24,000 bases of DNA from Terriglobia bacterium (GCA_963819015.1 CAWFUN010000001.1:486887-510886), one strand, 5' to 3'; shown: positions 1,341-21,616, counted from the stretch's first letter. The notes: a model not told the origin generated them from the sequence alone. Made by a program: numbers and translations.

Positions 1341-3812
<2,472 letters not shown>

Positions 3813-4201
3813 TTACCCTGTGGCCGTCGGCCGATTTTGGGCCGCGGCTCGAAGGGTTTCTGCTCCATCCCGTCCGGATTCCGCTTCCGCGGAAGCGAAC
3901 GTGGCGAAGACTACTTACTTCCAGGCCTGCATTCCCCTGCTGATTCCGGATTGCGCGGGCCTGGCCGACGTGCCGTTTTGGAGGAAACCAAAACTACGCC
4001 AATGCAGCCTTCATTTTACCGCGGCCCGGGCCATTCCTCAAGTCGAAAGGGGCGTGCGTTTCCGTCGTAAATGCCATGAATACAGAGGTTTGCGTGGGGT
4101 GTTTCGGTGCGACTCTTGGCGTTCGCTCGGAGCCTACAAGTGTCCAGCTACAACGCGTGTGGGATTGCCCAGATTACAGAAGCGAAGCCGTTACCATGCT
4201 G

Positions 4202-4229
4202 TTGACAATTGGCAAGCGCCCGGTAATAT
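4202..4229 (+). promoter_or_regulatory. sigma70-like promoter upstream of the HNH nuclease gene
   Basis: TTGACA (4202-4207), 16-nt spacer, TAATAT (4224-4229), about 140 nt upstream of the ATG at 4372. The -10 sits inside the near-palindrome CCCGGTAATATCGGG (4219-4233). A perfect 12-bp palindrome CAATGTACATTG follows at 4249-4260. Confidence 0.4.
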
Positions 4230-4371
4230 CGGGACCTCTCAGAGTGCGCAATGTACATTGTGGCGCTCTCTTGCTCTCTCTCGAAAACGCAAACACTGTG
4301 CTTGCGTGGGGGTTCGTGTGCCGAAGACAACGAGTAAGCCCGGCGCCATCCATCTCCGGATCATAGCTGTC

Positions 4372-5136
4372 ATGAAGCGGTTCCCCGAAGGGATCACAGG
4401 GGGACAGATCAGACAGGAACTCGAAAAGGAGGGCCTACAGCCGGAAGACCAAACTCATCTTGACCGCCGCAAGAGAGACCTCAAGAAGTGGTTCCATATC
4501 GAGAAAATCAAGAGCGCTCAAGAGGTGCAGGGCAAGAAGCGGAACGTGGTTCTGTACACATATGTTGGAAAGAGGAAACGCATCACTGATGAAGGAGGAG
4601 TCGACCAGCGGTTGAAGGCCGAGGTGATCCGCGCAGCTCGCGGGCGCTGTCAAATGTGCGGAAAGACAATCGAAAGACACGGTATCGCCCTCGTTGTTGA
4701 TCACAAGAAGCCCCGGGATTGGGGTGGTACGAATGACCGCGAGAATCTGTGGGCCATATGCGAGGAATGTAATTCGGGCAAGAAAGCCTTTTTCTCTTCG
4801 CTTGACGCATCTCCAGAATTGATGAGAACGGTCACAGCTCACGGGAGCGTCCATGTTCGCATAGGGGAGTTGTTGAAGGCGGTGGGCGTCGGAAAGCCTA
4901 CGCCATCATCTCTGCTAGAGGTTGTCGCTGACCAGGATGATTGGCAGAAGCGCCTTCGGGAACTCCGATACCCCGTCATCGGTTGGGATATCGAGACGCG
5001 GTTGTACAAGGGACCGTCTGGCAGGAAACAGGCTGACTACATTCTTCGAAGCCACAAACCTTGGCCCGAAAACCCTACCGAGACGATTCGCCGGTTTGAA
5101 AGGGAACGGGAAAAGAAGAACAGACGCCGGGGATGA
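4372..5136 (+). CDS. HNH-family endonuclease with flanking helical/winged-helix-like regions; probable restriction endonuclease of the island
   Basis: In-frame ATG at 4372 within ORF 3820..5136. The upstream ~180 codons are not protein-like. An alternative GTG at 4318 would add VPKTTSKPGAIHLRIIAV. The central beta-beta-alpha-Me signature is GRCQMCGKTIERHGIALVVDHKKPRDWGGTNDRENLWAICEECNSGKK (two CxxC pairs, DH...N). The C-terminal part (RLRELRYPVIGWDIETRLYK) looks like a DNA-binding module. The gene is convergent with vsr, 3 nt apart. Confidence 0.8.
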   Translation: MKRFPEGITGGQIRQELEKEGLQPEDQTHLDRRKRDLKKWFHIEKIKSAQEVQGKKRNVVLYTYVGKRKRITDEGGVDQRLKAEVIRAARGRCQMCGKTIERHGIALVVDHKKPRDWGGTNDRENLWAICEECNSGKKAFFSSLDASPELMRTVTAHGSVHVRIGELLKAVGVGKPTPSSLLEVVADQDDWQKRLRELRYPVIGWDIETRLYKGPSGRKQADYILRSHKPWPENPTETIRRFEREREKKNRRRG

Positions 5137-7253: not shown

Positions 7254-8366
7254 TCAAATCCGCATCGGCATAATGACGTAGCGGTAGCGAAGCGACTCGT
7301 CGCCGAGCGGCACCAATTGCCCGGCGGATTGTTCATCCTTCAGTTCAATGCTGATGGGGCCGTCCGCGGCCGCCGCCAGAAAATCGAGCATGTACTGCGC
7401 GTTGAATCCGATCGAAAGCGGTTCGTGCTTGTATTCTTTCTCGATCAACTCCTTCGCTTCGCCGTACTCGGGGCTGGATGCGGAAATCTCGATTCCCTCG
7501 CTTGCGAAGGAAAACTTCACGGCGCGGGAGCGCTGGTCCGCGAGTTGTGACACGCGGCGCACCGCGTCGTTGAGCTCGCCCCGTTCCAACACGACCTTCT
7601 TCTGGTTTTCCCGCGGCAACACCGCTTCGTAGTTGGGGAATTGGCCGGTCAGCATGCGGCAGATCAGGAGGCGTTCTCCCATCTTGAAGAATAAGTGGCT
7701 ATCGTCACGCGCGAATTCCATATCCTGGCTATCCTGTGCTTCTGCCGCCAGCCGCTGAATTTCAGCGAGCGCCTTCTTCGGCACCAGGACACGCACCTCG
7801 TTGCTCAGCCCCTCAATCTTGTGGTCGGTCTCGGCGAGCGCGAGCCGGTGGCCGTCCGTAGCCACCATCGTGAGCGAGTTGGGCTTCAAGATCAGAAGCG
7901 AACCATTCAGCGTATAGCGGGACTCCTCCGCGGAGATGGCGAATTGCGTCTTGGAAATCAACGAGGAAATCGTTTGCGCGTTGATTCGCGCGAGGGCGTG
8001 CGGAAACGCGGGAATCGCCGGGAAGTTGTCCTTCTCCATGCCGACCATCTTGTACGTCTTGCGGTCCGCAACGATCTGCACCCAGTGGTTCTCGAGGAGT
8101 TTGAACTTGAGATCTCCTTCCGGCAGCAAGCGCACGAGCTCCAGTAATTTTTTTGCGGGGATGGTGCCGGCGCCGTCTTTTTTCACTTTCGCTTCGCAGC
8201 TCGAGCGGATCGAGAGCTCCAGGTCCGTCGCGGTCAGCGTGAGTAGATTGCCCTTCGCCTCAAAGAGCAGGTTCGACAAGATCGGGATCGTTGTCTTGCG
8301 CTCGACCACACCCTGCGTGAGGTTAAGTTCCGTGAGCAGGTCGAACTTCTTCACGCTGAATTCCAT
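7254..8366 (-). CDS. dnaN: DNA polymerase III beta sliding clamp
   Basis: 370 aa with typical DnaN sequence (MEFSVKKFDLLTELNLTQGVVERKTTIPILSNLLFEAKGNLLTLTATDLELSIRS ... YRYVIMPMRI). GGAGGA RBS upstream. Located directly downstream of dnaA. Confidence 0.97.
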   Translation of the reverse strand: MEFSVKKFDLLTELNLTQGVVERKTTIPILSNLLFEAKGNLLTLTATDLELSIRSSCEAKVKKDGAGTIPAKKLLELVRLLPEGDLKFKLLENHWVQIVADRKTYKMVGMEKDNFPAIPAFPHALARINAQTISSLISKTQFAISAEESRYTLNGSLLILKPNSLTMVATDGHRLALAETDHKIEGLSNEVRVLVPKKALAEIQRLAAEAQDSQDMEFARDDSHLFFKMGERLLICRMLTGQFPNYEAVLPRENQKKVVLERGELNDAVRRVSQLADQRSRAVKFSFASEGIEISASSPEYGEAKELIEKEYKHEPLSIGFNAQYMLDFLAAAADGPISIELKDEQSAGQLVPLGDESLRYRYVIMPMRI

Positions 8367-10129: not shown

Positions 10130-10395
10130 ACACAATTTCCACAGCTGTGGAAATTGTGTGGAAACCCACCACCTCCGGCGCCACACAGGCTTAAGAGAGC
10201 GCGAGCCGAAATGATCGGCCGAGACGAGAACGTCTAGGCGCGGCCTCCCTGAGCAACCCTACCCGGATCGGTCTTGGCTCAGGAACCGCCGCAACCGAGT
10301 GCGGGGGGGATTCTCCACAAACGAAGCGTCCTCTACAAGCGAAATCTGCGAGAGAGCCCAGCCGGGACGCACAGCACTTCCACAGGATTTCCACA
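10130..10395. promoter_or_regulatory. cluster of six DnaA-box-like motifs upstream of dnaA (autoregulatory region and/or second oriC part)
   Basis: Perfect 30-bp palindrome ACACAATTTCCACAGCTGTGGAAATTGTGT (10130-10159) holding ATTTCCACA (10135-10143) and its inverted copy TGTGGAAAT (10146-10154). Further motifs: TGTGGAAAC (10157-10165), TTCTCCACA (10311-10319), ACTTCCACA (10376-10384), ATTTCCACA (10387-10395). Confidence 0.55.
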
Positions 10396-11508: not shown

Positions 11509-12294
11509 TCAGGTGTCCAGGCGGTAGCGGCGCCGTTCGATCGTTCGCGCGCGGCCCGATGTTTCGTCTACGTCCAGCAGAACCGCGTTCATTTGAACGT
11601 CTCCCGCGGCGACCTCGAATCGCGCCGGAAGATTGTCCAAAAAGCGGCGCAGGATCGCCGTGCGCTCCATGCCGATCACGCCGTCGTGAGGACCCGTCAT
11701 GCCCACGTCGGAAATGTACGCGGTGCCCTGCGGCAGCACGTGCTCGTCGGCGGTCGCGACGTGCGTGTGCGTGCCCACCACGGCGGACACCCGCCCGTCC
11801 AAATACCAGCCCATCGCCATCTTTTCGCTGGTGGTTTCCGCGTGCATGTCCACAACAATGATCTTCACCTCGCTCGGCAAAGCCGCCAACTCGCGGTCCG
11901 CGGCGCGGAAGGGACAGTCGGTGGAGCCCAGGAACACCCGGCCTTGCAGGTTCACCACGGCGTAGCGCGCGCCGTTACGCGCCGTGCCAAGAAAGACTCC
12001 GCGGCCCGGCGTTCCCTCGGGAAAATTGGCCGGACGAAGCAGCCGTGGCTCACGTGGGATGTACTCGAGCAACTCTTTACGATCCCAGATGTGATTGCCC
12101 CCGGTGAGCACTTCGATCCCGGCCGCAAACAACTCCTCGGCCAACCGGGGTGTGATACCGAAACCCGCGGCGGCATTCTCTCCATTCGCGAGAACGAGAT
12201 CGATCCCCTCTTGCGACACAATGTCCGCAAGCCGGTCCGCCACAATTCGCCGCCCGGGCGAACCAACAATATCTCCAATGAAGAGTATCCGCAT
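11509..12294 (-). CDS. ymdB: YmdB-family metallophosphoesterase (TIGR00282-type 2',3'-cyclic-nucleotide phosphodiesterase)
   Basis: 261 aa. [65 protein letters not shown] and ISDVGMTGP are the calcineurin-like metal-ligand blocks typical of YmdB. AAGGAA RBS. Confidence 0.9.
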
Positions 12295-12505: not shown

Positions 12506-15202
12506 TTAGAAGTGGAACCCGAGCTCCAGCGTCGCAGTTCGCGGCGTGACGTAGTGCGTCCCGCTAAATGTGGACAGGAAGTTGTAAAGTGCCACCTTGT
12601 TCGTCAGGTTGACCACCGTCAATTGCAAGCTCCATCGCTTGTGATCGCCGTGGAACAAATTGTCGTCCCCGATCGCCAAATCAAACAGGCTCCGCGGGGC
12701 GATGCGCGGAGGGTTGTGGTCGTCGTTTTCGGTCCCTGCCGCCGGCACGGAGATCAGTGTGGACCCAAAGTGCGACGCCAGGCACGCCAAAGGGAGCGAA
12801 ATGCCTGAAGGGTGCGTAGCGCTGGGTGGCGCAGCCCCCACGCCATTGCAAGTGAATCCCGCCTCGAATTCTTGATCCGCGGTAAAGGGGACCCCGCTTG
12901 TTGTTTCCATGAGGATCGCCGGCTGGCCGCCGAGCGTCGTGGATTGGGCGCAGTTGCCCCCGAAGCAAGGAGCCTGGCCCGCCACTAGCCCGCTGTCGTA
13001 ACGCCAGTTGAAGCCAAACCACGGCCCGTTTTTCCACGGCTGATACTGGAGGTGCGTCGTTTCATTGAAAACTTCGTCGTGGTCGATCCGGAACACGCCG
13101 CCGGACTGCCCCACGGTGACGCCCAACCCCCCAATCTGCGGCGGGAAGAACCGCGCGTTTACGTGGGACATCACGACGAACGCCGAAAAACCATGGACTG
13201 TCGGCACGGTTCCCCGCACCGTGAAACCCGGGATCTTCGACTTGGTCCATTCCACCGGAAACGTGATCGGCGTGTTTCCCAGGATGCTAAAGTCGTATCC
13301 TTCGCGCGTGTACTTCCAGACGTACTCCCCATCCAAGACGAAGTATCGTCCGAAGGCCTGCTGCAACCCCGCGTGGAACTCATTTCGCGTGCCGGGAGTG
13401 AGTGGGGCGGGAACGCAAGGCACCAGAAAGGAAATCACCGGGTCATTGCAACCCGAATTCGCAACGATGAGGTTCTCGTTGAAGGGAGTCTCCATCGTTC
13501 GCGCGTACGACAGGCGAAGAATCGTATTGGTCTTTGAGATCTTGTAAGCAACGCCGTCGCGGGGCTCCAGAAGATCCTTCACGACCAGCCCGTTATACGC
13601 ATCGCCCCGGACGCCGAGGTTGAACGACCAGTTTCCAACCGTGATTGTATCCTCCAGGTACAAGGCGAGCTCTTTCACGTCCGTGTGGCCATGAAAGAGA
13701 TATTCCGGCACGTGCTGGTAGGTCCCATTGTAGCTGCTCGGATTCGGGCAGCCATCCGTCGTCGCTTCCGAAGCCGTCAGCGGCTCGGCCAGGTCGTAAC
13801 ACGCGGCGATCGAGTCGGTCACATCGACCCCAGGATCGACGATTCCTAGCCGGTCGTTTTCCGTGAGATAGGTCTGCTGGTAGACCATGCCGCCCTTTAC
13901 GTTGTTGACGCCTCTCACGTAGGAAAATTCGGCGCGGAAGCCGGCATTCTTGAGAGTGCGGTTCTGGCCAATCGTTTCGCTCTGCAAAGGGCCGAAGTCG
14001 GAGAACGGATTAGCGCTCGGGTCGTAGTTATAGTGGTCCTGGCGAACGAAACCGCTGAGCGTAACTATCACCGTCGTGCCGATCAGATGTGTCCACGTGG
14101 GCGCGACGTTGAACGTCGTGATGACCGAGCGCTGATCGGTTGGCCCGACCGGGTTGCCGAACGGATCGGTCGCATCGATGTTCAGGTTGTCGTACGTATT
14201 CGGATTCTGGAACCAGGAGTGCGTGTATTCGAGATTCAATTGAAGCGTGTCTGCCGCGGTCGGTTTGAAATCAATCCGGTCAAAAACGTTCTCCTCGTGG
14301 CCGTGGTCGTGCATCACCTCGAATTCCGGCGGGTCGAGAAACCGCCTGGAATAGAGGCCGCTTGCGGCGACAAAATTGCCCCATTTGGGGCCTCCCGTCG
14401 ACAGATTGAAATCTAGCGACGGCGTCCCAAAGGTGCTGTATGACGCGACGACATTTCCTGTCGGCTGCGTGGCGCCGAGACCCGATCTCGTCGTCGCGAC
14501 GATAATCACGCTCGTCTTGTCCCCAAATTCCGCCGGAGGAGCACCGGGAATCACCTCCAGGGATTGAACCGCATCCAGTGGAATCTGGTTTGAGAAGATT
14601 TTGCTTTGCTGGTCCGTGATGGGCTGGTTGTCAACCGTGAAGGAGTTCTCCGCATGATCACCCATCCCGTGAAAGAGGCCGTTCGAGTCCGCCGCGATTC
14701 CCGGAGTGGAAAGCGTGACCAGCGAACTTAAAGAAGAGGATTGGCTTTCCAGGGGAAGTTTGTCGAACAGGCCGCGGTCCACATCCGTATGCGCCGTGGA
14801 ATCGGTTTCCAGCAGGTCGCCCGCATCCGTCCTGACGCTGACCTGTTCCGATGCGCCTGCGATCTGCAAGCCAACTTTCAGCGAGATCGGCAAGCTCGAG
14901 CGGACGTCAACATCCTGCACGAACGACGCAAACCCGTTTGCCGTCACCGTCAAGTGATATGGGTTGAAGGGAACGTTTGGAAAACTGAAAGCGCCCGCGG
15001 AATCCGTCCGCGTGGTTCGGTCGTAACCGCTCACGGGATTGTGGATTTCCACGGTTGCGCCTGAGATCAGGGCGTTCGATGGATCGGTCACCGTCCCTGA
15101 TACAGAGGTTGAGCTACTGGTCGACTGCGCGAACAGCTGTGGCGCGGTGAAAAACACCGCCATCGCTGCAATAAATGCCCAACGAAATAATCTTTTCTGC
15201 AT
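12506..15202 (-). CDS. TonB-dependent receptor with N-terminal carboxypeptidase-regulatory-like domain (receptor 1)
   Basis: Start at ATG 15202 (MQKRLFRWAFIAAMAVFFTAPQLFAQS signal peptide) preceded by AAGGAGA. CarboxypepD_reg-like SGTVTDPSNALISGATVEIHNPVSGYDRTTRTDSAGAFSFPNVP, a plug-like region, a long beta-barrel, and a C-terminal ..ATLELGFHF ending in Phe. Confidence 0.9.
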   Translation of the reverse strand: MQKRLFRWAFIAAMAVFFTAPQLFAQSTSSSTSVSGTVTDPSNALISGATVEIHNPVSGYDRTTRTDSAGAFSFPNVPFNPYHLTVTANGFASFVQDVDVRSSLPISLKVGLQIAGASEQVSVRTDAGDLLETDSTAHTDVDRGLFDKLPLESQSSSLSSLVTLSTPGIAADSNGLFHGMGDHAENSFTVDNQPITDQQSKIFSNQIPLDAVQSLEVIPGAPPAEFGDKTSVIIVATTRSGLGATQPTGNVVASYSTFGTPSLDFNLSTGGPKWGNFVAASGLYSRRFLDPPEFEVMHDHGHEENVFDRIDFKPTAADTLQLNLEYTHSWFQNPNTYDNLNIDATDPFGNPVGPTDQRSVITTFNVAPTWTHLIGTTVIVTLSGFVRQDHYNYDPSANPFSDFGPLQSETIGQNRTLKNAGFRAEFSYVRGVNNVKGGMVYQQTYLTENDRLGIVDPGVDVTDSIAACYDLAEPLTASEATTDGCPNPSSYNGTYQHVPEYLFHGHTDVKELALYLEDTITVGNWSFNLGVRGDAYNGLVVKDLLEPRDGVAYKISKTNTILRLSYARTMETPFNENLIVANSGCNDPVISFLVPCVPAPLTPGTRNEFHAGLQQAFGRYFVLDGEYVWKYTREGYDFSILGNTPITFPVEWTKSKIPGFTVRGTVPTVHGFSAFVVMSHVNARFFPPQIGGLGVTVGQSGGVFRIDHDEVFNETTHLQYQPWKNGPWFGFNWRYDSGLVAGQAPCFGGNCAQSTTLGGQPAILMETTSGVPFTADQEFEAGFTCNGVGAAPPSATHPSGISLPLACLASHFGSTLISVPAAGTENDDHNPPRIAPRSLFDLAIGDDNLFHGDHKRWSLQLTVVNLTNKVALYNFLSTFSGTHYVTPRTATLELGFHF

Positions 15203-15320
15203 TGCGTCTCCTTGTGTGCAAAGCCGGCGCGCATCCCAATGCGCGCGGGAAAAAGGCCAAGTTAGGGAGCAGCCCGGCTGGAGCGCGGTTCCTGCCCGCA
15301 AAGAGAAAGAACTCAGGGAA

Positions 15321-15620
15321 TTAAGCTTGGCTGGGAGGGGCTCGCGAGGACGCGCGTGCAAGTTCAGCAGAGGAATAGAGAATCGTGCCGCTTAGCGGCG
15401 CGCGCATAGCAATCGCACAAAGAGAGATCGGGGCGGGCGGCGCAACCGGCGCGGTCACCGGCATATGCGCAACCTGGCACACGGGGCAAGCAGCCTCCGC
15501 TCCCGGTGCGTCGTAGTGCCAGACTCCGCCCGCCGCCAGGAGGGAGAACAGCGCCACGAGTGCCGCGCCAGTCAGCAAGCGGGTGCGAAGCTTCGAAAGC
15601 GAGTTGTCGCGGGGCGCCAT
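15321..15620 (-). CDS. small single-pass membrane protein with conserved CPVCQVAHMP motif (copy 1)
   Basis: 99 aa: N-terminal basic stretch, TM helix LLTGAALVALFSLLAAGGVW, then AACPVCQVAHMPVTAPVAPP. The paralog at 18787..19086 has the same length, start and stop, with 17 aa differences. About half of the 47 nt differences are silent, which argues for real coding sequence. Confidence 0.65.
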   Translation of the reverse strand: MAPRDNSLSKLRTRLLTGAALVALFSLLAAGGVWHYDAPGAEAACPVCQVAHMPVTAPVAPPAPISLCAIAMRAPLSGTILYSSAELARASSRAPPSQA

Positions 15621-15695
15621 TGGAAGTACGTATTCTATACTAGATGACGGCGGGCACGGCGGCGTTGCAGGCTTTTTGCGCGAGAGGCACTGCCT

Positions 15696-15815
15696 CTACG
15701 CCGATTGGCGCAGGGCGCGTTCGACCAATGTCAGGCAGCGCTCGGCCCGCTCGCGAACGGAAGTGTCGCGCCGCGCGAGTTCCTGTCGCAGCGATTCCAG
15801 CCCGTCCGCGATCGC
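15696..15815 (-). pseudogene. remnant of the last 39 codons + stop of zapA (no start, no N-terminal part)
   Basis: Minus-strand translation AIADGLESLRQELARRDTSVRERAERCLTLVERALRQSA* versus intact ZapA AIADELESLRQEHARRDTSVRERAERCLTLVERALRQSA*. Upstream of 15816 the sequence is unrelated to zapA. Confidence 0.75.
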
Positions 15816-15968
15816 CGTTTACCGGAGCGTTGTTCGCCCCCACCAAGGACACGAGATCCACCTCCGTTCACTCTGGGTTCGTTCCGTAGGGGCTGAGGCT
15901 TTCCAGCAGCGTGCCAACCATGGTTCTATCTGAGTGGGAATAATCACCTGACCTCGGAAAGGAAGGTA

Positions 15969-18659
15969 TCAGAAGGCGATACCCAACTCCGCCCGGTACG
16001 TGCGCGGCGCAACGAAATGCGTCCCCGAGCAAGTCGAAAGGAAGTTGAAGAGCGCCTCTTTGTTGGTAATGTTCAGAGCCTCAAACCGCAAGGTCCAACG
16101 CACCCGATCCGTGTGGAAAAGATTGTCGGTCCCGACCCCGACGTTGAACAGGTTGCGTCCTCGGACACGCGGGGGATTCGTGTCGTCATTTTCCGTGCCG
16201 GCTGGGGGGATACTTACCAGTTTTGTCCCCCAGTTCGAAGAAGTGCAAGTCTTGATCGGAATAAAAGGCGTCGCGACCTGATTGCCGCAATAAAACCCAA
16301 TCTGCGCTTGCTGGTCGGCGGTCAGCCCCAGCACGCTCGCTAGATCCGGAACTGCGCCCGCCACGATGCCGCTGTCATAGCGCCAAGTAAACGCCACCCA
16401 CGGCACATTCTTTTTCATCTGATACTGAATGTAAGTTGTGCTCTGGAAGTTTTGGTCGTGGTCGATCCGCAGGACGCTGACGTTTATGGGAGCTTGGAAG
16501 ATCAAACCGCCGTTCTCCGGGCCGAACACGCGGGCTCGCGTATGCCCCAGATTAAGGTAGGCGGACAGGCCCTTCCACTGGCGAAGGGACAGCCGCGAGG
16601 AGAAACCGTCCATCTTGGAATGGTCCCACTCGATCGGAAAGAAAATCGCAGTGGTAAAGATATTGTCCAGGTCGAACGCGTTGCGAGTGTACTTCCAGAA
16701 GTAGTCGGCATCCAGCACCCAATGCGAGCCTATAGCCTGTTCCAGGCCGGCGTTGTACATGTTGCGAATTCCCGGTTTAAGCGGCACGCTCGCATACCCG
16801 CCGAACACATTTGTCGCCAAGCCGCCGGCGCCCGTCTCGCTCGACAGCACCAAGTTCTCGTTTAGCGGGGTCTCGTAGGTGTGCGAATAAGCCACCCGGA
16901 ATACGGTGCCTGTGCGAGCAACGTGATAGGACAGACCCAGACGAGGATCGGGTTGCCACCCGCGGCTGATACCGGTATAGTTATCGATCCGTAATCCGAC
17001 GTTCAGAAGCCAATTGCCAAGAGTAATGGCATCCTGGGCGTAAAAAGCCTCCTCCCTGATATCCGCGTGGCCGTTAAAGTGAAATAAAGTTCCTCCACGC
17101 GTCAGGTCGTACGCAACGAGGCCGGGCTTGAAGCCGTTATCCGTGGTATTCGGGAAAAACCCAGCCCCCGTGCACTGGCTCGTCTGAGTAAGATTGGGCT
17201 GATCGATGACCGGGTCAGTGAGCTGCGCGTCAGTGTAGCAAACTGGATTGAACGTCGGGTCGGTCAGTCCTAGGCTGAAGCGCTCCAACAGCAGGGTGTG
17301 GGTAAACTGCGCGCCGATCTTGACGTTGTGCCGCCCATGAGCATAACTGAGATCCGCCTTCAGACCCAGGTTGGTCAGCGTCCTGTATTGCGCCAATGTG
17401 GCGGGTGTGTCCGCGAATGAAAGCATTTGATTTTGGTTCGTCGGGTAGTAATTGACCTCGTCATGACGCACGAACGCGTTCACACTCAAGAGTGTATTGG
17501 GCCCCAAGGCACCAACCCAGCCTGGGGCGATGTTGTAGGACCGCACCTGTTGCCTCTGATCCTGCCCGGAAACCAGCCCATCATAGGTGTTAGGAATCTG
17601 AAACCAGTTTCTTGCCCCCATGATGTCGAGGTGGAATGTATTCGCGGAGTTTAGCTGGTAATCGCTCCGGGAAAACACGGTCTCATTGTTGCCTATATCG
17701 TGCATTGGTACCCACTCGGCGGTATCCAGGAAACGGCCTGAGCGGGTGGCATTCACCGCGAAGAACTGACCCCATTTGCTGCCGCCGAACCCGATGTCGC
17801 CTTTCAGATTGTCAGTCCCGAAAGAGCCGTACCCGGTCGAAAAACTGCCGCGCGTCGGCTGTCCAAGCCCCGACCGGGTTACGGTGGTAACGACCAGCGA
17901 GGTCTTATCACCGTACTCGGCAGGGGTTCCTCCATAAACCGCTTCCACGGACTGAATCGCGTTCAGCGGAATCTGCGTGGAGAAGAGGTTGCCTTGCTGG
18001 TCCGTGATCGGTTGGCCGTCGACGGAAAGACTCATTTGGGCGTGATCGCCGAGAGAGTGGAAGAAGCCATCCGAATCCGCCACCACGGCGGGAGAAGCAA
18101 GCGTGATGACGTCGCTGAGGCCAGATGCGACCGATGGCGTTGGCATCTTTGAAAACAGCGTGTTATCGACAATTGACGACGCCGTAGGATTGGTTTCAAC
18201 CAGCGGCTTTTCACCAACAACCGTGAGCGAGGCGTACTGCCCCGGAATGGCCAGCCTGATTTCCAGGTCCACGGGTACAGTGCTCCGAACGTCTAAATCT
18301 TGATGATAATGTTGGAAGCCGGCAGCATCGACCTCGAAGTGGTAGATATTCGGGGGAATGTTCGTGAACTTAAACTCACCGGAAGCCGAGGTCACGACCT
18401 CCCGGCGATATAAGGTCAAATCGTTGTACAGACTTACACGTGCGCCAGCGATAGCGGCGCCGCTTGGATCGGTGACTTTTCCACCGATGGTTCCGGCAGT
18501 GCCGAGAGACTGGCCGGACGCACAGGGACGAAAGGTGAACAGTGAGCCGACAAGCAAAAGGATGCCCAGAGCCAGTCGCGGCAGCGCAGATTCGCAGCCT
18601 CGGGCCCTGCCAAAGCGAAAGTTGCAATAACGAAAAGGACTGAGAAAAGCTGAATTCAT
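15969..18659 (-). CDS. TonB-dependent receptor with N-terminal carboxypeptidase-regulatory-like domain (receptor 2, distant paralog of receptor 1)
   Basis: Start at ATG 18659 (MNSAFLSPF...LALGILLLVGSLFTFRPCASGQS) preceded by AAGGAGA. GGKVTDPSGAAIAGARVSLYNDLTLYRREVVTSASGEFKFTNIPP, plug and barrel, C-terminal ..RAELGIAF. Same architecture as receptor 1, but many residues differ. Confidence 0.9.
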   Translation of the reverse strand: MNSAFLSPFRYCNFRFGRARGCESALPRLALGILLLVGSLFTFRPCASGQSLGTAGTIGGKVTDPSGAAIAGARVSLYNDLTLYRREVVTSASGEFKFTNIPPNIYHFEVDAAGFQHYHQDLDVRSTVPVDLEIRLAIPGQYASLTVVGEKPLVETNPTASSIVDNTLFSKMPTPSVASGLSDVITLASPAVVADSDGFFHSLGDHAQMSLSVDGQPITDQQGNLFSTQIPLNAIQSVEAVYGGTPAEYGDKTSLVVTTVTRSGLGQPTRGSFSTGYGSFGTDNLKGDIGFGGSKWGQFFAVNATRSGRFLDTAEWVPMHDIGNNETVFSRSDYQLNSANTFHLDIMGARNWFQIPNTYDGLVSGQDQRQQVRSYNIAPGWVGALGPNTLLSVNAFVRHDEVNYYPTNQNQMLSFADTPATLAQYRTLTNLGLKADLSYAHGRHNVKIGAQFTHTLLLERFSLGLTDPTFNPVCYTDAQLTDPVIDQPNLTQTSQCTGAGFFPNTTDNGFKPGLVAYDLTRGGTLFHFNGHADIREEAFYAQDAITLGNWLLNVGLRIDNYTGISRGWQPDPRLGLSYHVARTGTVFRVAYSHTYETPLNENLVLSSETGAGGLATNVFGGYASVPLKPGIRNMYNAGLEQAIGSHWVLDADYFWKYTRNAFDLDNIFTTAIFFPIEWDHSKMDGFSSRLSLRQWKGLSAYLNLGHTRARVFGPENGGLIFQAPINVSVLRIDHDQNFQSTTYIQYQMKKNVPWVAFTWRYDSGIVAGAVPDLASVLGLTADQQAQIGFYCGNQVATPFIPIKTCTSSNWGTKLVSIPPAGTENDDTNPPRVRGRNLFNVGVGTDNLFHTDRVRWTLRFEALNITNKEALFNFLSTCSGTHFVAPRTYRAELGIAF

Positions 18660-19282
18660 GTGGCATCTCCTTGTGTGCAAAGCCAGCGCGCATCTCAATG
18701 CGCGTGGGGAAAAGGCCAAGTTAGGGAGCAGACCGGCCGGAGCGCGGAGCCAGTCCGCAAAGAGAAGAAAGTCAGGGGATTGGCAATTAAGCCTGGCTGG
18801 GAGGGGCCCGAGAGGAAGCGCGCGGAAGTTCGGGAGCCGAATAGAGGATCGTTCCGCTTTGCGGCGCGCGCAGTGCAATCGCGCACAGACCAACCAGCAC
18901 GGGCGGCGCAACCGGCGCCGTCACCGGCATATGCGCAACCTGGCATACGGGGCAGGCGGCTTCCGTGCCCGGCTCGTGGTGGTGATAGACTCCGCCCGCC
19001 GCCAAGAGGCAGAACAGTGCCACCAGCGCCGCGCCCGTCAGCAGGCGTGTGCGAAGCTCCGAAAGCGAGTTGTCGCAGGGCGCCATGGGAAGTACGTATT
19101 CTACACTAGATGGCGGCGGACACGGCGGCGTTGCAGGCTTTTTGCGCGAGTGGTACTGCCTCTACGCCGATTGGCGCAGGGCGCGTTCGACCAATGTCAG
19201 GCAGCGCTCGGCCCGCTCGCGAACGGAGGTGTCGCGCCGCGCGTGCTCCTGGCGCAGCGATTCCAACTCGTCCGCGATCGCC
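18660..19282. repeat. copy 2 of the duplicated cassette (here continuous with intact zapA)
   Basis: See copy 1. The offset is 3466 nt for the ORF, spacer and zapA parts, and 3457 nt at the receptor start codons because of small indels in the leader. Confidence 0.85.
18787..19086 (-). CDS. small single-pass membrane protein with conserved CPVCQVAHMP motif (copy 2, His-rich variant)
   Basis: 99 aa: MAPCDNSLSELRTRLLTGAALVALFCLLAAGGVYHHHEPGTEAACPVCQVAHMPVTAPVAPP... Same organisation as 15321..15620. Confidence 0.65.
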   Translation of the reverse strand: MAPCDNSLSELRTRLLTGAALVALFCLLAAGGVYHHHEPGTEAACPVCQVAHMPVTAPVAPPVLVGLCAIALRAPQSGTILYSAPELPRASSRAPPSQA

Positions 19283-19452
19283 AGCGCCGCGAGCACGGCG
19301 ACTCGCACCGAATCCACTGTTCCCGAATCGCGCGCAATTCCCCGCATTTTTTCGTCCACCAGGCGCGCGAGTTGCGTCACGTACTCCGGATCGAGTTCTC
19401 CGCTGATCGTGTAAGGCTGGTCGTAGATTTCCACTTTCACGCGATGGCTCAC
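19162..19452 (-). CDS. zapA: cell division protein ZapA
   Basis: 96 aa with a GTG start and AGAGGAG RBS. VKVEIYDQPYTISGELDPEYVTQLARLVDEKMRGIARDSGTVDSVRVAVLAALAIADEL matches the ZapA family pattern. Position downstream of pheT is typical. Confidence 0.85.
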   Translation of the reverse strand: MSHRVKVEIYDQPYTISGELDPEYVTQLARLVDEKMRGIARDSGTVDSVRVAVLAALAIADELESLRQEHARRDTSVRERAERCLTLVERALRQSA

Positions 19453-19537
19453 GGGCGGCGCTCCTCTAAGGGCGGAGCTATTCTCCGGCTGGAATGTTTG
19501 CGAAACAACAAAAAAGCTTGGCGCTGGGGGACTCGCC

Positions 19538-21616
19538 TCAGGACGTGCGCAGCCGCCCGCCTAGCGACTCGAGCGCGCCAGCGATGCGGCTCCTCGCGCC
19601 GGTGAGTTGCGCGTCCGTCAGTGTGGCGGAGTAACTCTGAAGCGTCACGCGGACCAGGAGCGAATGCTCTCCGTCGGGCACGCCCTTGCCGCGAAATAGA
19701 TCGATGGCTTCGATGTCGGCCACTTCCGCGATGCCGAGCGATTGAATGGCTTGCGCGACCTGCGCGAACGTGACGCTGTCGGGCAGAAACAGCGAAAAGT
19801 CACGTTCGACCGCGGGGAACCGAGGCACCGGCTGATACTGCGGATTTGCGCGCCGCGCGCCGTACGCCGCATAGAGCGGATCGAGCTCGATCTCGGCGAG
19901 ATAGGCGTCCTGCCGCAGCTTGAATCGCTCGGCTACGCGCCGAGCCAGCAAACCCGCGGCGCCAAGGGAGGTTCCGTCCGCCAGAGCGAGCGACGCCGCC
20001 CGCGCTGGCTGCAGCCATGCTGGCCCGCCGTTCGACCAGCGCAACTTCCCGGCGAGAATCTTCAATTGATCGAGGTCGCCTTTCAGATCTTCAAAGCCGT
20101 ACGTGCGCGCGGATTCCGCAACGCCTTGTTCTCGCGCGAAGCCGGACGCTCCGATCGTCAACACGCGCGCCTCAACGGTTTCTTTCCCCGCCCACGCGTA
20201 ACGCCGGCCGATCTCGAACAGCCGAAGGTTGCGCTGGCTGTGGTTCAAGTTCCATTCGAGCGTCGCGGCCATGCTGACGGCGCCATTCGACCGGAGCAGC
20301 GGCGCGTCCTCCGCGATGGGATTCCCGATGCGAACCGGCGTCACGCCCTCCGCGCGAAACAGCGCGTCGCGATCTGCGTCCACATGGGTGATGCTGATAA
20401 TTTCGCGATAGCCCAGGCCCGCCAGCAATTCGCGCAGCCGCTCTTCCGCCTCGGCGTGCGTGCGCTGGGCGGCTGGCCGTTTGGCGGGTGGGAGCCGGGG
20501 AGGGAACTTTTCAAGTCCGAAGTGGCGCGCTACCTCTTCAATGAGATCGATTCCGCGCGACACGTCCGCCCGCCAGGACGGCCGGCGGCACTCCCATGCT
20601 GCCATCAGAGAGCCCGAGCTTCCTCGCGTCGCATCCGTTCGCACGGGTGCAAACCCCAGCGATTTCAGGATTGCTTCGACTTCACGGTCCGGCACGTCCG
20701 CGCCGAGCACGCGCAACAATTCATTTCGCGTCAGCTCGATGCGCGGCGTCTCAGCGCGGCCCGGATAGATGTCCACCACGCCCTGCAGCACGTCTCCGCC
20801 TGCGATCTGTTGAATCAGTTCCGCGCAGCGCCGCGAGGCGAGTTCGGCCATCTCGGGGTCGGCGCCGCGCTCGAAGCGGTGCGATGCTTCGGTCCGCAAC
20901 CCGAGGGCCTTCGACGTTTGCCGCACCGAGATCGCGTCGAACATGGCGCATTCCAGAAGCAGCGCCCGCGTGCCCGCGGATATCTCCGTCTCCGCGCCAC
21001 CCATCACCCCGCCTATCCCCACAGCTCTTTTCGCGTCAGCGTTCAGGCACATGTCCGGAGTGAGTGTGCGTTCCTGGCCGTCGAGCGTGCGCAGCTTCTC
21101 TCCCGCTCGCGCCCGGCGCACGATCATTTTCCGCTCCGCGATGGTGTCCAGGTCGAACGCGTGCAGCGGATGGCCCAACTCGAACATGACGAGGTTCGTC
21201 GCGTCCACGACATTGTTGATCGAAGCTTGCCCCATCGCTTCGAGCCGCTGCCGCACCCACGCGGGCGAAGGGCCGATCTTCACGCCGCGCAGCACCCGCG
21301 CGGTGTATCGCCCGCAAAGTTCCGGGCACTCGATCTCCACGCGCACGGCCGAAGAAGCCTTTTCGGCTGTTTCCTTCAACTTCGGCGCAACGCTCCGCAG
21401 CGCCTGCCGGAACACGGTGGAGACTTCCCGCGCCAGTCCGTAGTGGCCGAGACAATCGCCGCGATTCGCCGTCACTTCGACGTCCAGCACCGCCCCGGCC
21501 GCGTTTTGCTCGATCGCATCCACGGCCGTGCCCGAAAGCGAAAGCCGCTCGCGCAATTCCTCGGGCGCCGCCGTGAAGGGCACAAACTCTTTGAGCCACT
21601 CGTAGAGAACTTTCAT
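19538..21616 (-). CDS. pheT: phenylalanine--tRNA ligase beta subunit (short form, 692 aa)
   Basis: MKVLYEWLKEFVP.. N-terminus, B3/4 domain (INNVVDATNLVMFELGHPLHAFD), B5, and C-terminal FDX-ACB-like end. The start overlaps the pheS stop (ATGA). Confidence 0.95.
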   Translation of the reverse strand: MKVLYEWLKEFVPFTAAPEELRERLSLSGTAVDAIEQNAAGAVLDVEVTANRGDCLGHYGLAREVSTVFRQALRSVAPKLKETAEKASSAVRVEIECPELCGRYTARVLRGVKIGPSPAWVRQRLEAMGQASINNVVDATNLVMFELGHPLHAFDLDTIAERKMIVRRARAGEKLRTLDGQERTLTPDMCLNADAKRAVGIGGVMGGAETEISAGTRALLLECAMFDAISVRQTSKALGLRTEASHRFERGADPEMAELASRRCAELIQQIAGGDVLQGVVDIYPGRAETPRIELTRNELLRVLGADVPDREVEAILKSLGFAPVRTDATRGSSGSLMAAWECRRPSWRADVSRGIDLIEEVARHFGLEKFPPRLPPAKRPAAQRTHAEAEERLRELLAGLGYREIISITHVDADRDALFRAEGVTPVRIGNPIAEDAPLLRSNGAVSMAATLEWNLNHSQRNLRLFEIGRRYAWAGKETVEARVLTIGASGFAREQGVAESARTYGFEDLKGDLDQLKILAGKLRWSNGGPAWLQPARAASLALADGTSLGAAGLLARRVAERFKLRQDAYLAEIELDPLYAAYGARRANPQYQPVPRFPAVERDFSLFLPDSVTFAQVAQAIQSLGIAEVADIEAIDLFRGKGVPDGEHSLLVRVTLQSYSATLTDAQLTGARSRIAGALESLGGRLRTS

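Follow-up and report, generated by a model that had tools for sequence, protein, structure and literature searches.

CruR (Bp2923) of Bordetella pertussis belongs to the DUF2946 (PF11162) family and was described as regulating the TonB-dependent transporter BfrG from an upstream position in response to copper (Roy et al., mBio 2022, PMC9426467). The CxxC motif of CruR is found at residues 90–93 and the RAPP motif at residues 139–142, three residues before the end of the protein, with a spacing that is conserved within 1–2 residues (PMC9426467). An export signal is present in >95% of the DUF2946 family, which also carries the CxxC motif (PMC9426467). The upstream open reading frame (uORF) for CruR is followed by a 162-nt intergenic region and the gene for the TonB-dependent transporter, and a region where C exceeds G (a C>G bubble) extends from the second half of the uORF (PMC9426467). 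Here, a 24,000-nt stretch of DNA from a Terriglobia bacterium (GCA_963819015.1, CAWFUN010000001.1:486887–510886; the window) was analyzed. The window contains two copies of a 0.6-kb cassette, each with a 99-codon uORF and a leader directly ahead of a receptor gene, denoted REC1 and REC2.

Two further descriptions bear on this arrangement. For CutF of Rhodobacter capsulatus, also a DUF2946 protein, copper-induced stalling opens a stem-loop that hides the ribosome-binding site (RBS) of cutO (bioRxiv 10.1101/2025.02.05.636593). RAPP/RGPP uORFs have been found 5' of TonB-dependent receptors across Gram-negative phyla, and arrest by CruR was demonstrated in vitro (EMBO J 2025, PMC12992588). The RAPP/RGPP arrest peptides include ApdA and ApdP, for which structures are available (PMC10951233). 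Both the class and its association with TonB-dependent receptors have thus been published already, and no new principle is put forward here. The published surveys describe the class, but not the acidobacterial clade, its tandem use before a pump and a receptor, or the duplication of a cassette. Each cassette in the window is probably a self-contained sensor-regulator of the CruR/CutF class ahead of an outer-membrane transporter of the TonB-dependent type. The class and regulatory role of the small protein, taken jointly with a history of gene capture accompanied by cassette duplication, are considered likely.

Organization of the Repeated Cassette

The two cassettes were aligned using blastn. 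Positions 15204–15816 match 18663–19282 with 87.1% identity over 620 columns (73 mismatches and one 7-nt gap, E = 0), which is far beyond chance and confirms the 0.6-kb repeat of the preliminary description. A repeat search of the window resolved two gap-free pieces at 84–87% identity. In a global alignment of the two units, the identity in 60-nt windows is 75–100% within the repeat and 30–65% past both edges. The edge is sharp and falls at the receptor start codons, as had been described. The flat identity range of roughly 84–95% given previously was not retained, since the identity differs by part: 93–100% for the zapA fragment and spacer, 75–85% for the 3' half of the ORF, and about 90% for the leader. 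The same gradient recurs when the cassette is compared with orthologues in other genomes. Therefore, a conversion tract was rejected as its source, and the gradient is attributed to unequal constraint.

Each arm contains, in minus-strand order, the last 39 codons and stop of zapA, a 75-nt spacer, the 99-codon ORF, and the leader through AAGGAGA. The AAGGAGA element is separated by 4 and 6 nt from the receptor ATG codons at 15202 and 18659, respectively. The products of the two 99-codon ORFs are 83% identical, while blastn detected only patches of 66–71% DNA similarity between the receptors. No similarity was found between the sequences 3' of the two receptors, which are unrelated, in agreement with the preliminary description. 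The features of the locus, all on the minus strand, are as follows.

19162–19452, minus strand: intact zapA, 96 aa, downstream of pheS-pheT (Pfam ZapA, E = 1.8e-19); same position in all related loci.
18663–19282, minus strand: cassette copy 2 (arm H2), with zapA codons 58–96 and stop, spacer, uORF-2, and leader-2 (blastn).
19087–19161, minus strand: 75-nt spacer of copy 2 with the -10-like element TGTAGAAT and TAGAAT from 19103; candidate promoter (sequence reading).
18787–19086, minus strand: uORF-2, 99 aa, CruR/DUF2946-like, with CPVC at 18954–18943 and RAPP at 18810–18799 (dN/dS 0.17–0.26 against orthologues).
18660–18786, minus strand: leader-2, 127 nt, pyrimidine-rich with a C>G start; GC hairpin at 18704–18687 and Shine-Dalgarno element (SD) AAGGAGA at 18672–18666.
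15969–18659, minus strand: REC2, 896 aa, CarboxypepD_reg domain and predicted TonB-dependent-transporter fold, putative captured gene (Pfam, AlphaFold, Foldseek).
15817–15968, minus strand: 152-nt tail 3' of REC2, ending at the joint with the zapA fragment.
15204–15816, minus strand: cassette copy 1 (arm H1; repeat search, blastn, global alignment).
15696–15816, minus strand: zapA 3' fragment, codons 58–96 and stop (19282–19162 in copy 2), pseudogene remnant.
15621–15695, minus strand: 75-nt spacer of copy 1 with the -10-like element TATAGAAT and TAGAAT from 15637 (sequence reading).
15321–15620, minus strand: uORF-1, 99 aa, CruR/DUF2946-like, with CPVC at 15488–15477 and RAPP at 15344–15333.
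15203–15320, minus strand: leader-1, 118 nt, with the hairpin GCGCGCAT-TGGG-ATGCGCGC at 15246–15227 and SD AAGGAGA at 15213–15207.
12506–15202, minus strand: REC1, 898 aa, ancestral receptor of the locus, with an orthologue as the receptor in every related locus.
11509–12294, minus strand: ymdB-like metallophosphoesterase (Pfam YmdB, E = 2.5e-107), conserved right border of the variable locus; same position in relatives.

The zapA fragment of copy 1 is preceded immediately 5' by an in-frame TAA and carries two private amino acid changes (E62G and H69L). These features mark the piece as a nonfunctional passenger, in line with the earlier view that it was dragged along.

The 99-Codon Upstream Open Reading Frame

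DUF2946 was the only Pfam family matched by the small ORF. Residues 35–96 of the copy-2 product align to positions 54–117 of the 117-position profile with E = 0.008. Counting against membership, the copy-2 score of 17.4 bits is below the gathering score of 23.7, and copy 1 gave no match at E ≤ 0.01. Because the window copies fall below the gathering score, the assignment to this class was based on motif geometry, consistent subthreshold matches, and gene context. Matches to DUF2946 at E ≤ 1 were obtained for 19 of 21 close homologues (best 1.1e-4). When 141 sequences were scanned (139 from a profile search and the two window copies), 46 matched DUF2946 at E ≤ 0.01 (best 3.4e-5), and no other family recurred.

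The 20 close homologues are all from metagenome-assembled genomes (MAGs) of Candidatus Acidiferrales/Terriglobia or from metagenomes. The segments A44-C45-P46-x-C48-Q-V-A-H-M-P and S91-S92-R-A-P-P are invariant in 19 homologues. The profile search of 1.84 billion proteins provided 140 representatives of clusters at 50% identity, and the sequences of 139 of these were analyzed. A CxxC motif together with R[AGS]PP was found in 128 of the 139. The two motifs are separated by 44 residues in 114 of the 128 and by 43 or 45 residues in 12 more; R[AGS]PP is located 1–3 residues from the C-terminus in 113, and 7 are RGPP variants. C45 is invariant and C48 is at least 90% conserved in the alignment of 141 sequences. 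In both window ORFs, CPVC is at residues 45–48 and RAPP at residues 93–96 of 99, with 44 residues between. The N-terminus, as read from the sequence, contains a hydrophobic segment at residues 15–34 (LLTGAALVALFxLLAAGGVW) after R12 and R14, and this pattern is conserved in the alignment. A sequence search for solved structures gave none for REC1 and nothing meaningful for the uORF profile.

The ratio of nonsynonymous to synonymous substitution (dN/dS) is 0.11–0.41 in all uORF pairs and 0.21 for copy 1 against copy 2. Since the ratio is about 0.2, both ORFs are taken to be translated and constrained. In each locus, the uORF is the first gene of the operon and is followed by 102–181 nt and then by either a receptor with the TonB-dependent-transporter fold or an OEP-CzcB-CusA/CzcA pump. 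From its motifs and context, the 99-codon ORF is assigned to a divergent acidobacterial branch of the CruR/CutF (DUF2946) class, not to the membership defined by the Pfam threshold.

The cassette resembles the CruR system in several respects. The uORF is first in the operon and encodes a small, putatively exported or anchored peptide with CxxC and with RAPP three residues before the stop. The motif spacing is 44 residues, compared to 45 in CruR, and the leader is 118–127 nt, compared to 162 nt. A C>G bubble begins in the second half of the uORF and continues into the leader, and a transporter of the TonB-dependent type is found downstream. The differences are that the window uORF has 99 residues rather than 145 and is below the Pfam gathering threshold, that Acidobacteriota is not among the DUF2946 phyla of PMC9426467, and that the window transporter has an N-terminal CarboxypepD_reg domain and is not followed by a PepSY gene. 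In addition, the window uORFs have an invariant His and Met (QVAHMP) after CxxC. The shared features with the RAPP/RGPP arrest peptides are the RAPP motif near the C-terminus, a putative localization signal, and the position 5' of a TonB-dependent receptor; this family, too, includes RGPP variants.

These results extend the CruR/DUF2946 arrest-peptide sensors to Acidobacteriota, in a clade with at least 140 cluster representatives at 50% identity. The Pfam threshold misses both window copies and those close homologues for which scores were checked. In the public protein collection, uORF-2 is called as a gene, but uORF-1 (15321–15620) is not. Small arrest-peptide genes are easily missed, as they are often uncalled or annotated only as "hypothetical protein".

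Spacer and Leader

A TAGAAT element is found 11 nt 5' of each uORF ATG, which lacks a Shine-Dalgarno sequence. This placement hints at a short or absent 5' leader of the uORF mRNA. From the 3' half of each uORF to the end of the leader, C outnumbers G by 7 to 11 per 60 nt in copy 1 and by 9 to 17 per 60 nt in copy 2. The base counts for the leaders are C40/G33 and C46/G30 for copies 1 and 2, respectively. A predicted hairpin is conserved in the two leaders, GCGCGCAT-TGGG-ATGCGCGC in copy 1 and its counterpart at 18704–18687 in copy 2. Covariation for the leader structures is weak (3 of 27 pairs, term +0.38) and is insufficient to claim either this hairpin or a helix between the SD and an anti-SD. 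An Rfam search of 15100–19500 returned no family at E ≤ 1, and a scan of the cassettes and tail for terminators found none. Transcription from cassette 2 may read into cassette 1 and REC1, as the 152-nt tail of REC2 lacks a terminator-like structure.

Receptors

REC1 (898 aa) and REC2 (896 aa) share 41% identical residues and are old paralogues, as previously proposed. In Pfam, OMP_b-brl_4 is matched above threshold by the receptors, and Plug falls just under it, with 20.8 and 21.6 bits against 23.9. An AlphaFold model of REC2 was obtained with a predicted template modeling score (pTM) of 0.67 and a mean confidence (pLDDT) of 64.7. When this model was compared with the PDB using Foldseek, FecA, PqqU, FepA, and BtuB were matched at E of about 1e-23 with target-normalized TM scores of 0.7–0.78. 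On this modeling, the receptors have the TonB-dependent-transporter fold and an extra N-terminal CarboxypepD_reg domain.

The orthologues of REC2 (76–83% identity) are located at unrelated loci, with a ZIP permease, a cytochrome c, an RND pump, or an integrase fragment as the neighbor. A separate, quite different CruR-like uORF precedes each of them (for example, ...CGVCQVARH...SSRAPPLS). Other acidobacterial receptors of the REC2 clade also have CruR-like uORFs of their own (L019:7264–7539, L019:13115–13480, and L049:5403–5822). Among the REC2-clade loci, one has two candidate uORFs in a row, one uORF ends in RGPP, and one orthologue is beside a phage-integrase fragment.

A second REC1 allele of 927 aa was found in several close relatives (window 12979–14194 compared with L006:6671–7923; also L012, L022, and L030). 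The DNA identity with this allele is 80–81% at the 5' end and about 68% in mid-gene, the protein identity is 61–62%, and the flanking housekeeping genes are 90–95% identical. The receptor gene is a hotspot for recombination or diversification.

Proposed Mechanism of Regulation

The mechanism proposed for each cassette builds on the results presented above, namely the conserved motif anatomy, a uORF under purifying selection, a C>G bubble, and a downstream gene with the transporter fold. Stalling, the response to metal, and Rho dependence are carried over from the work on Bordetella CruR. We infer that the transcript begins within the 75-nt spacer that follows zapA, or slightly 5' of it, and that the 99-codon uORF is then translated. 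The putative N-terminal anchor would bring the nascent chain to the membrane. When metal is scarce, the ribosome would stall on RAPP with three sense codons left and cover the start of the C-rich, G-poor stretch. Rho would thereby be kept off and the receptor transcribed. Binding of metal, most likely copper, to the Cys-Cys-His-Met cluster of the nascent chain (CPxCQVAHM) would relieve the stall, and Rho would terminate in the leader, so that the receptor is turned off. Copper is favored because of the ligand set and the precedent in the family. The earlier proposal that the module matters for receptor expression is supported by this assignment to a CruR/DUF2946-type regulatory uORF and leader. 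The Rho mode specifically is put forward tentatively, with slightly less than an even chance of being correct.

Several observations weigh against this mechanism. Zinc or another metal is possible in place of copper, as the RND pump in related loci is a generic CusA/CzcA and a ZIP permease is beside one REC2 orthologue. A strict sigma-70 scan of the cassettes and tail gave no consensus site. Both leaders can also be folded with the pyrimidine tract on the SD, and this fits the mode of CutF over that of Rho.

In the CutF mode, the principal mechanistic rival, metal bound to the exported nascent chain would induce or prolong the stall, and the stall would remodel the leader and open a helix that hides the SD of the receptor. 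Control would be translational and would not require Rho. The window uORFs share with CutF, itself a DUF2946 member that works in this way (bioRxiv 10.1101/2025.02.05.636593), a putative signal or anchor, the Cys/His metal site, the C-terminal proline arrest motif, and a predicted pairing of the leader with the SD. In the minimum free energy folds, a pyrimidine tract farther 5' pairs with the SD AAGGAGA; this tract is UCUCUUUG in copy 1 and UUUCC by the GC hairpin in copy 2. An 8-bp helix of anti-SD and SD is kept in the consensus fold of 10 related leaders. However, the anti-SD begins at least 17 nt past the uORF stop. It is beyond the reach of a ribosome stalled on RAPP, whose P-site would be about 29 nt away. 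The helix is broken in more distant leaders (L003b and L034b) with essentially no covariation, and the predicted fold of the copy-1 leader is no more stable than those of shuffled sequences (z = +0.59). CutF turns on a detoxifying oxidase with copper, whereas the target in the window is an uptake-type receptor; an uptake receptor that is turned on with more metal has the wrong sign, unless the receptor does not import that metal. The CutF mode is thus judged unlikely for the receptor cassettes. The a-type uORF found ahead of the RND pump in relatives (see below) is a better candidate for it.

It is very unlikely that the small protein is mainly a mature, membrane-anchored periplasmic partner of the receptor that binds metal, such as a chaperone or an anti-sigma-like sensor. 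Such a role would fit the purifying selection along the full length of the ORF and the combination of a putative membrane anchor with Cys/His/Met ligands. The best-conserved parts are nevertheless those of an arrest peptide, with SSRAPP set at constant spacings to CxxC and to the stop, and the ORF always heads the operon with a long leader next. In Bordetella, mature CruR protein was not detectable, and little structure is predicted for it (PMC9426467).

The Locus in Related Genomes

More than 30 related loci were retrieved and compared, and three states were distinguished. State A is widespread, is found in deeper lineages, and has the order zapA-uORFa-OEP-CzcB-CusA/CzcA-uORFb-REC1-ymdB, where the pump is a TIGR00914 heavy-metal RND transporter. 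State B has the single arrangement zapA-uORF-REC1-ymdB and is found in the closest relatives (L006, L010, L012, L022, L027, and L030) and in the more distant L047. State C is found in the window only. Positions 8075–8694 of L010 align to both window copies, and the window is therefore described as a State-B locus with REC2 and its tail flanked by the duplicated cassette. Neither REC2 at this locus nor two receptors here were found among the 30+ related loci.

Starting at zapA, the cassette of State B and both window copies are of the a-type up to about nt 484 of the repeat, whereas their last codons and leader are of the b-type (window 18663–19282 compared with L003:9805–10288 and L003:16130–16513). 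This chimeric structure is what would remain if the two uORFs had recombined near the invariant RAPP codons and the pump had thereby been deleted.

In L003:10001–16391 (also L023–L026 and L032–L046), an a-type uORF of 98–107 aa heads the RND efflux operon directly 5' of uORF-REC1. The hairpins in the a-type leaders differ from those of the receptor-type leader. The placement of one sensor-peptide family before an exporter and an importer-type gene, 6 kb apart, would imply opposite regulatory outputs. The two uORFs of L001 (L001:3932–4228 and L001:10001–10300) are 88% identical overall, compared to 58–59% in L003 and L034. They are nearly identical over the first ~70 codons and keep position-specific 3' ends, which points to partial gene conversion between these copies in L001.

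Proposed Origin of the Duplicated Cassette

In a neighbor-joining tree of the cassettes, copy 1 groups with L010 in 181 of 200 bootstraps, and copy 1 groups with copy 2 in 0 of 200. The synonymous divergence (dS) of the uORFs is 0.45 between copies 1 and 2, 0.21 between copy 1 and L010, and 0.26–0.40 between copy 2 and L029, L006, L012, and L010; the dS for pheT between the window and L010 is 0.22. The value between the two copies is larger than any between-genome uORF dS in the State-B ingroup (L006, L010, L012, and L029) or the value for pheT. The zapA fragment carries L010-type bases at three sites (alignment sites 17, 31, and 37) where L010 and the intact zapA of the window differ.

The receptors are only 41% identical against 83% for the uORF products, and with the bootstrap result and the dS of 0.45, a simple, recent in-place tandem duplication was ruled out. 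Gene conversion that homogenizes the module in the window, one of the two explanations offered in the preliminary description, was ruled out by the receptor identity, the cassette phylogeny, and the same dS. Copy 1 had also been designated as the derived copy. In structure, copy 1 is the one with the truncated zapA, but the designation is not supported: copy 1 and REC1 behave as the vertically inherited unit, given a uORF dS to L010 that is similar to that of pheT and the L010-type bases of the fragment.

The joints of the inserted segment were examined by comparison with an orthologue. Homology between the window REC2 and the orthologue in L015 starts at CATGAATTC, and the repeat ends at AAGGAGA(T/C)GC. 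Since the homology with L015 starts at this point, REC2 appears to have been separated from the uORF and leader of its original locus and attached to the resident cassette inside the spacer between the RBS and the ATG. The joint between the tail and zapA (15816/15817, at zapA codon 57) is illegitimate, with a 2-nt microhomology (GG). The 152-nt tail has no similarity to any fetched locus or to the rest of the window. The cassette-2/REC2 joint is considered confirmed because an independent Logan contig (L051, run ERR11594403) matches window positions 19184–18012 at 99.9% over 1173 nt.

From the comparison of these sequences, the cassette is interpreted as duplicated through an old capture of REC2, neither by a recent in-place duplication nor by ongoing gene conversion. 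The ancestral locus would have been zapA-uORFa-(OEP-CzcB-CusA/CzcA efflux pump)-uORFb-REC1-ymdB. Recombination between the uORFs near the RAPP codons would have removed the pump to give the single-cassette locus of the closest relatives. The lineage of the window would then have gained REC2 from a different receptor clade, with loss of its own CruR-like uORF. REC2 would have been joined at the RBS-ATG spacer with the other joint at zapA codon 57, leaving the 0.6-kb cassette as a direct repeat around REC2.

The divergence between the two copies is no younger than that among the related single-copy lineages. Two histories are therefore considered: an event at least as old as the single-cassette radiation, with clean loss elsewhere, or the arrival of one arm and REC2 from a sister lineage. 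An arrival of the latter kind could have occurred by homology-facilitated illegitimate recombination, or a circular fragment could have been integrated through a single crossover. Homology-facilitated illegitimate recombination and Campbell-type additive integration occur in naturally transformable bacteria. The window resembles the product of such events in that foreign DNA is beside a homologous anchor, one joint has a 2-nt microhomology, a resident stretch is duplicated, and the duplicate copies differ by the divergence between lineages. It differs in that the process is read here from the end product alone; a replication-based duplication-insertion followed by long divergence is possible.

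Three points count against the capture history as given. The arrangement zapA-cassette-REC2 alone, expected for a donor, is found in no lineage among the related loci. The joint at 15816/15817 gained no second assembly witness from two exact-protein look-ups. The dS values for the uORF are based on ~83 synonymous sites, with standard errors of roughly 0.07–0.09 by estimate rather than by computation. Scans of the flanks for a crossover or an imported tract, using the sites that match L006 or L010 and the density of window-private substitutions, gave no breakpoint beside zapA and showed only an unrelated divergent patch in pheT.

An old, strictly vertical duplication-insertion in the single-cassette ancestor was weighed against the arrival of DNA from another lineage. 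In this case, REC2 would have been lost cleanly in the sister lineages by recombination between the repeats, and no DNA from a foreign lineage would be involved. Direct repeats of 0.6 kb ease scarless deletion, a similar deletion apparently removed the efflux operon, and the dS of 0.45 between the copies matches or exceeds the deepest in-group values of 0.25–0.33. This scenario requires at least two independent losses, though, and the surviving cassette must be copy-2-like at the zapA end, whereas the intact zapA of L010 has the copy-1 states at sites 17, 31, and 37. The intermediate genome was not found. A purely vertical origin is accordingly given a low probability.

An old tandem pair of receptors with a module kept similar by gene conversion had been suggested in the preliminary description. 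Conversion between uORFs does occur in this clade (88% in L001 compared to 58–59% in L003 and L034), and the boundary of similarity is sharp. This suggestion was abandoned as highly improbable: none of the 30+ related loci has REC2 or two receptors at this site, the REC2 orthologues are elsewhere with their own uORFs, and the copies are not closest relatives and show a dS that is the largest among close single-cassette relatives. A conversion tract, moreover, is not expected to bring a zapA fragment to a site without one or to stop within the RBS-ATG spacer of a gene whose 5' end is foreign. The other explanation offered there, insertion of the module between two pre-existing tandem receptors, is not supported, since none of the related loci has two receptors at this site and the REC2 orthologues are elsewhere.

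An assembly artifact, either a two-strain chimera or a misjoined repeat, would be conceivable for a MAG from samples with several related strains and with one joint seen in a single assembly, but it is scarcely credible for copies that at 87% identity are too different to collapse or confuse, with both uORFs and both receptors intact and the cassette-2/REC2 joint reproduced in ERR11594403; misjoins arise at shared sequence, and a misjoin at 15816/15817, with 2 nt of microhomology only, is unlikely.

Two Putative Sensor Copies as a Natural Experiment

The window presents a natural experiment in which two diverged sensor copies and two receptors are found in one genome, and in which the sister copies of relatives drive a pump and an uptake receptor. 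The shares of the peptide and of the leader RNA in setting the sign of the output and the metal specificity are directly testable with these copies. The capture of REC2 suggests that the module of uORF and leader is exchangeable as a unit between transport genes. A wider reading, held to be rather improbable, is that the cassette serves, alongside regulation, as a portable adaptor for swaps of metal-transport cargo at the zapA-ymdB site. Recombination between cassettes would then delete cargo (the efflux pump), and joining at the RBS would install cargo (REC2) under the same metal sensor. Such an adaptor would resemble a small gene-cassette site that is defined by a regulator. In a related reading, the opposite outputs in the relatives would be encoded wholly in the two leaders, with the CruR and CutF modes in one locus.

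Flanking Genes

The order of genes on the minus strand of the window is pheS, pheT, zapA, cassette 2, REC2, the 152-nt tail, cassette 1 (zapA fragment first), REC1, ymdB, an NHL-repeat gene, dnaA, dnaN, and gyrB. The locus therefore adjoins genes of the replication origin, with dnaA at 10184–8778, dnaN at 8366–7254, and gyrB at 3749–1341, all on the minus strand. A C5 cytosine methylase (6774–5572, minus strand) and an HNH endonuclease (3820–5136, plus strand) are located between dnaN and gyrB. In the relative L006, an Eco57I-type N6 methylase is found after dnaN instead, which suggests a variable restriction-modification slot. The divergent patch in pheT (20800–21200) contains 50 window-private substitutions in 400 nt, compared to 2–7 per 200 nt elsewhere in the flank, and resembles a short segment acquired from a less closely related lineage.

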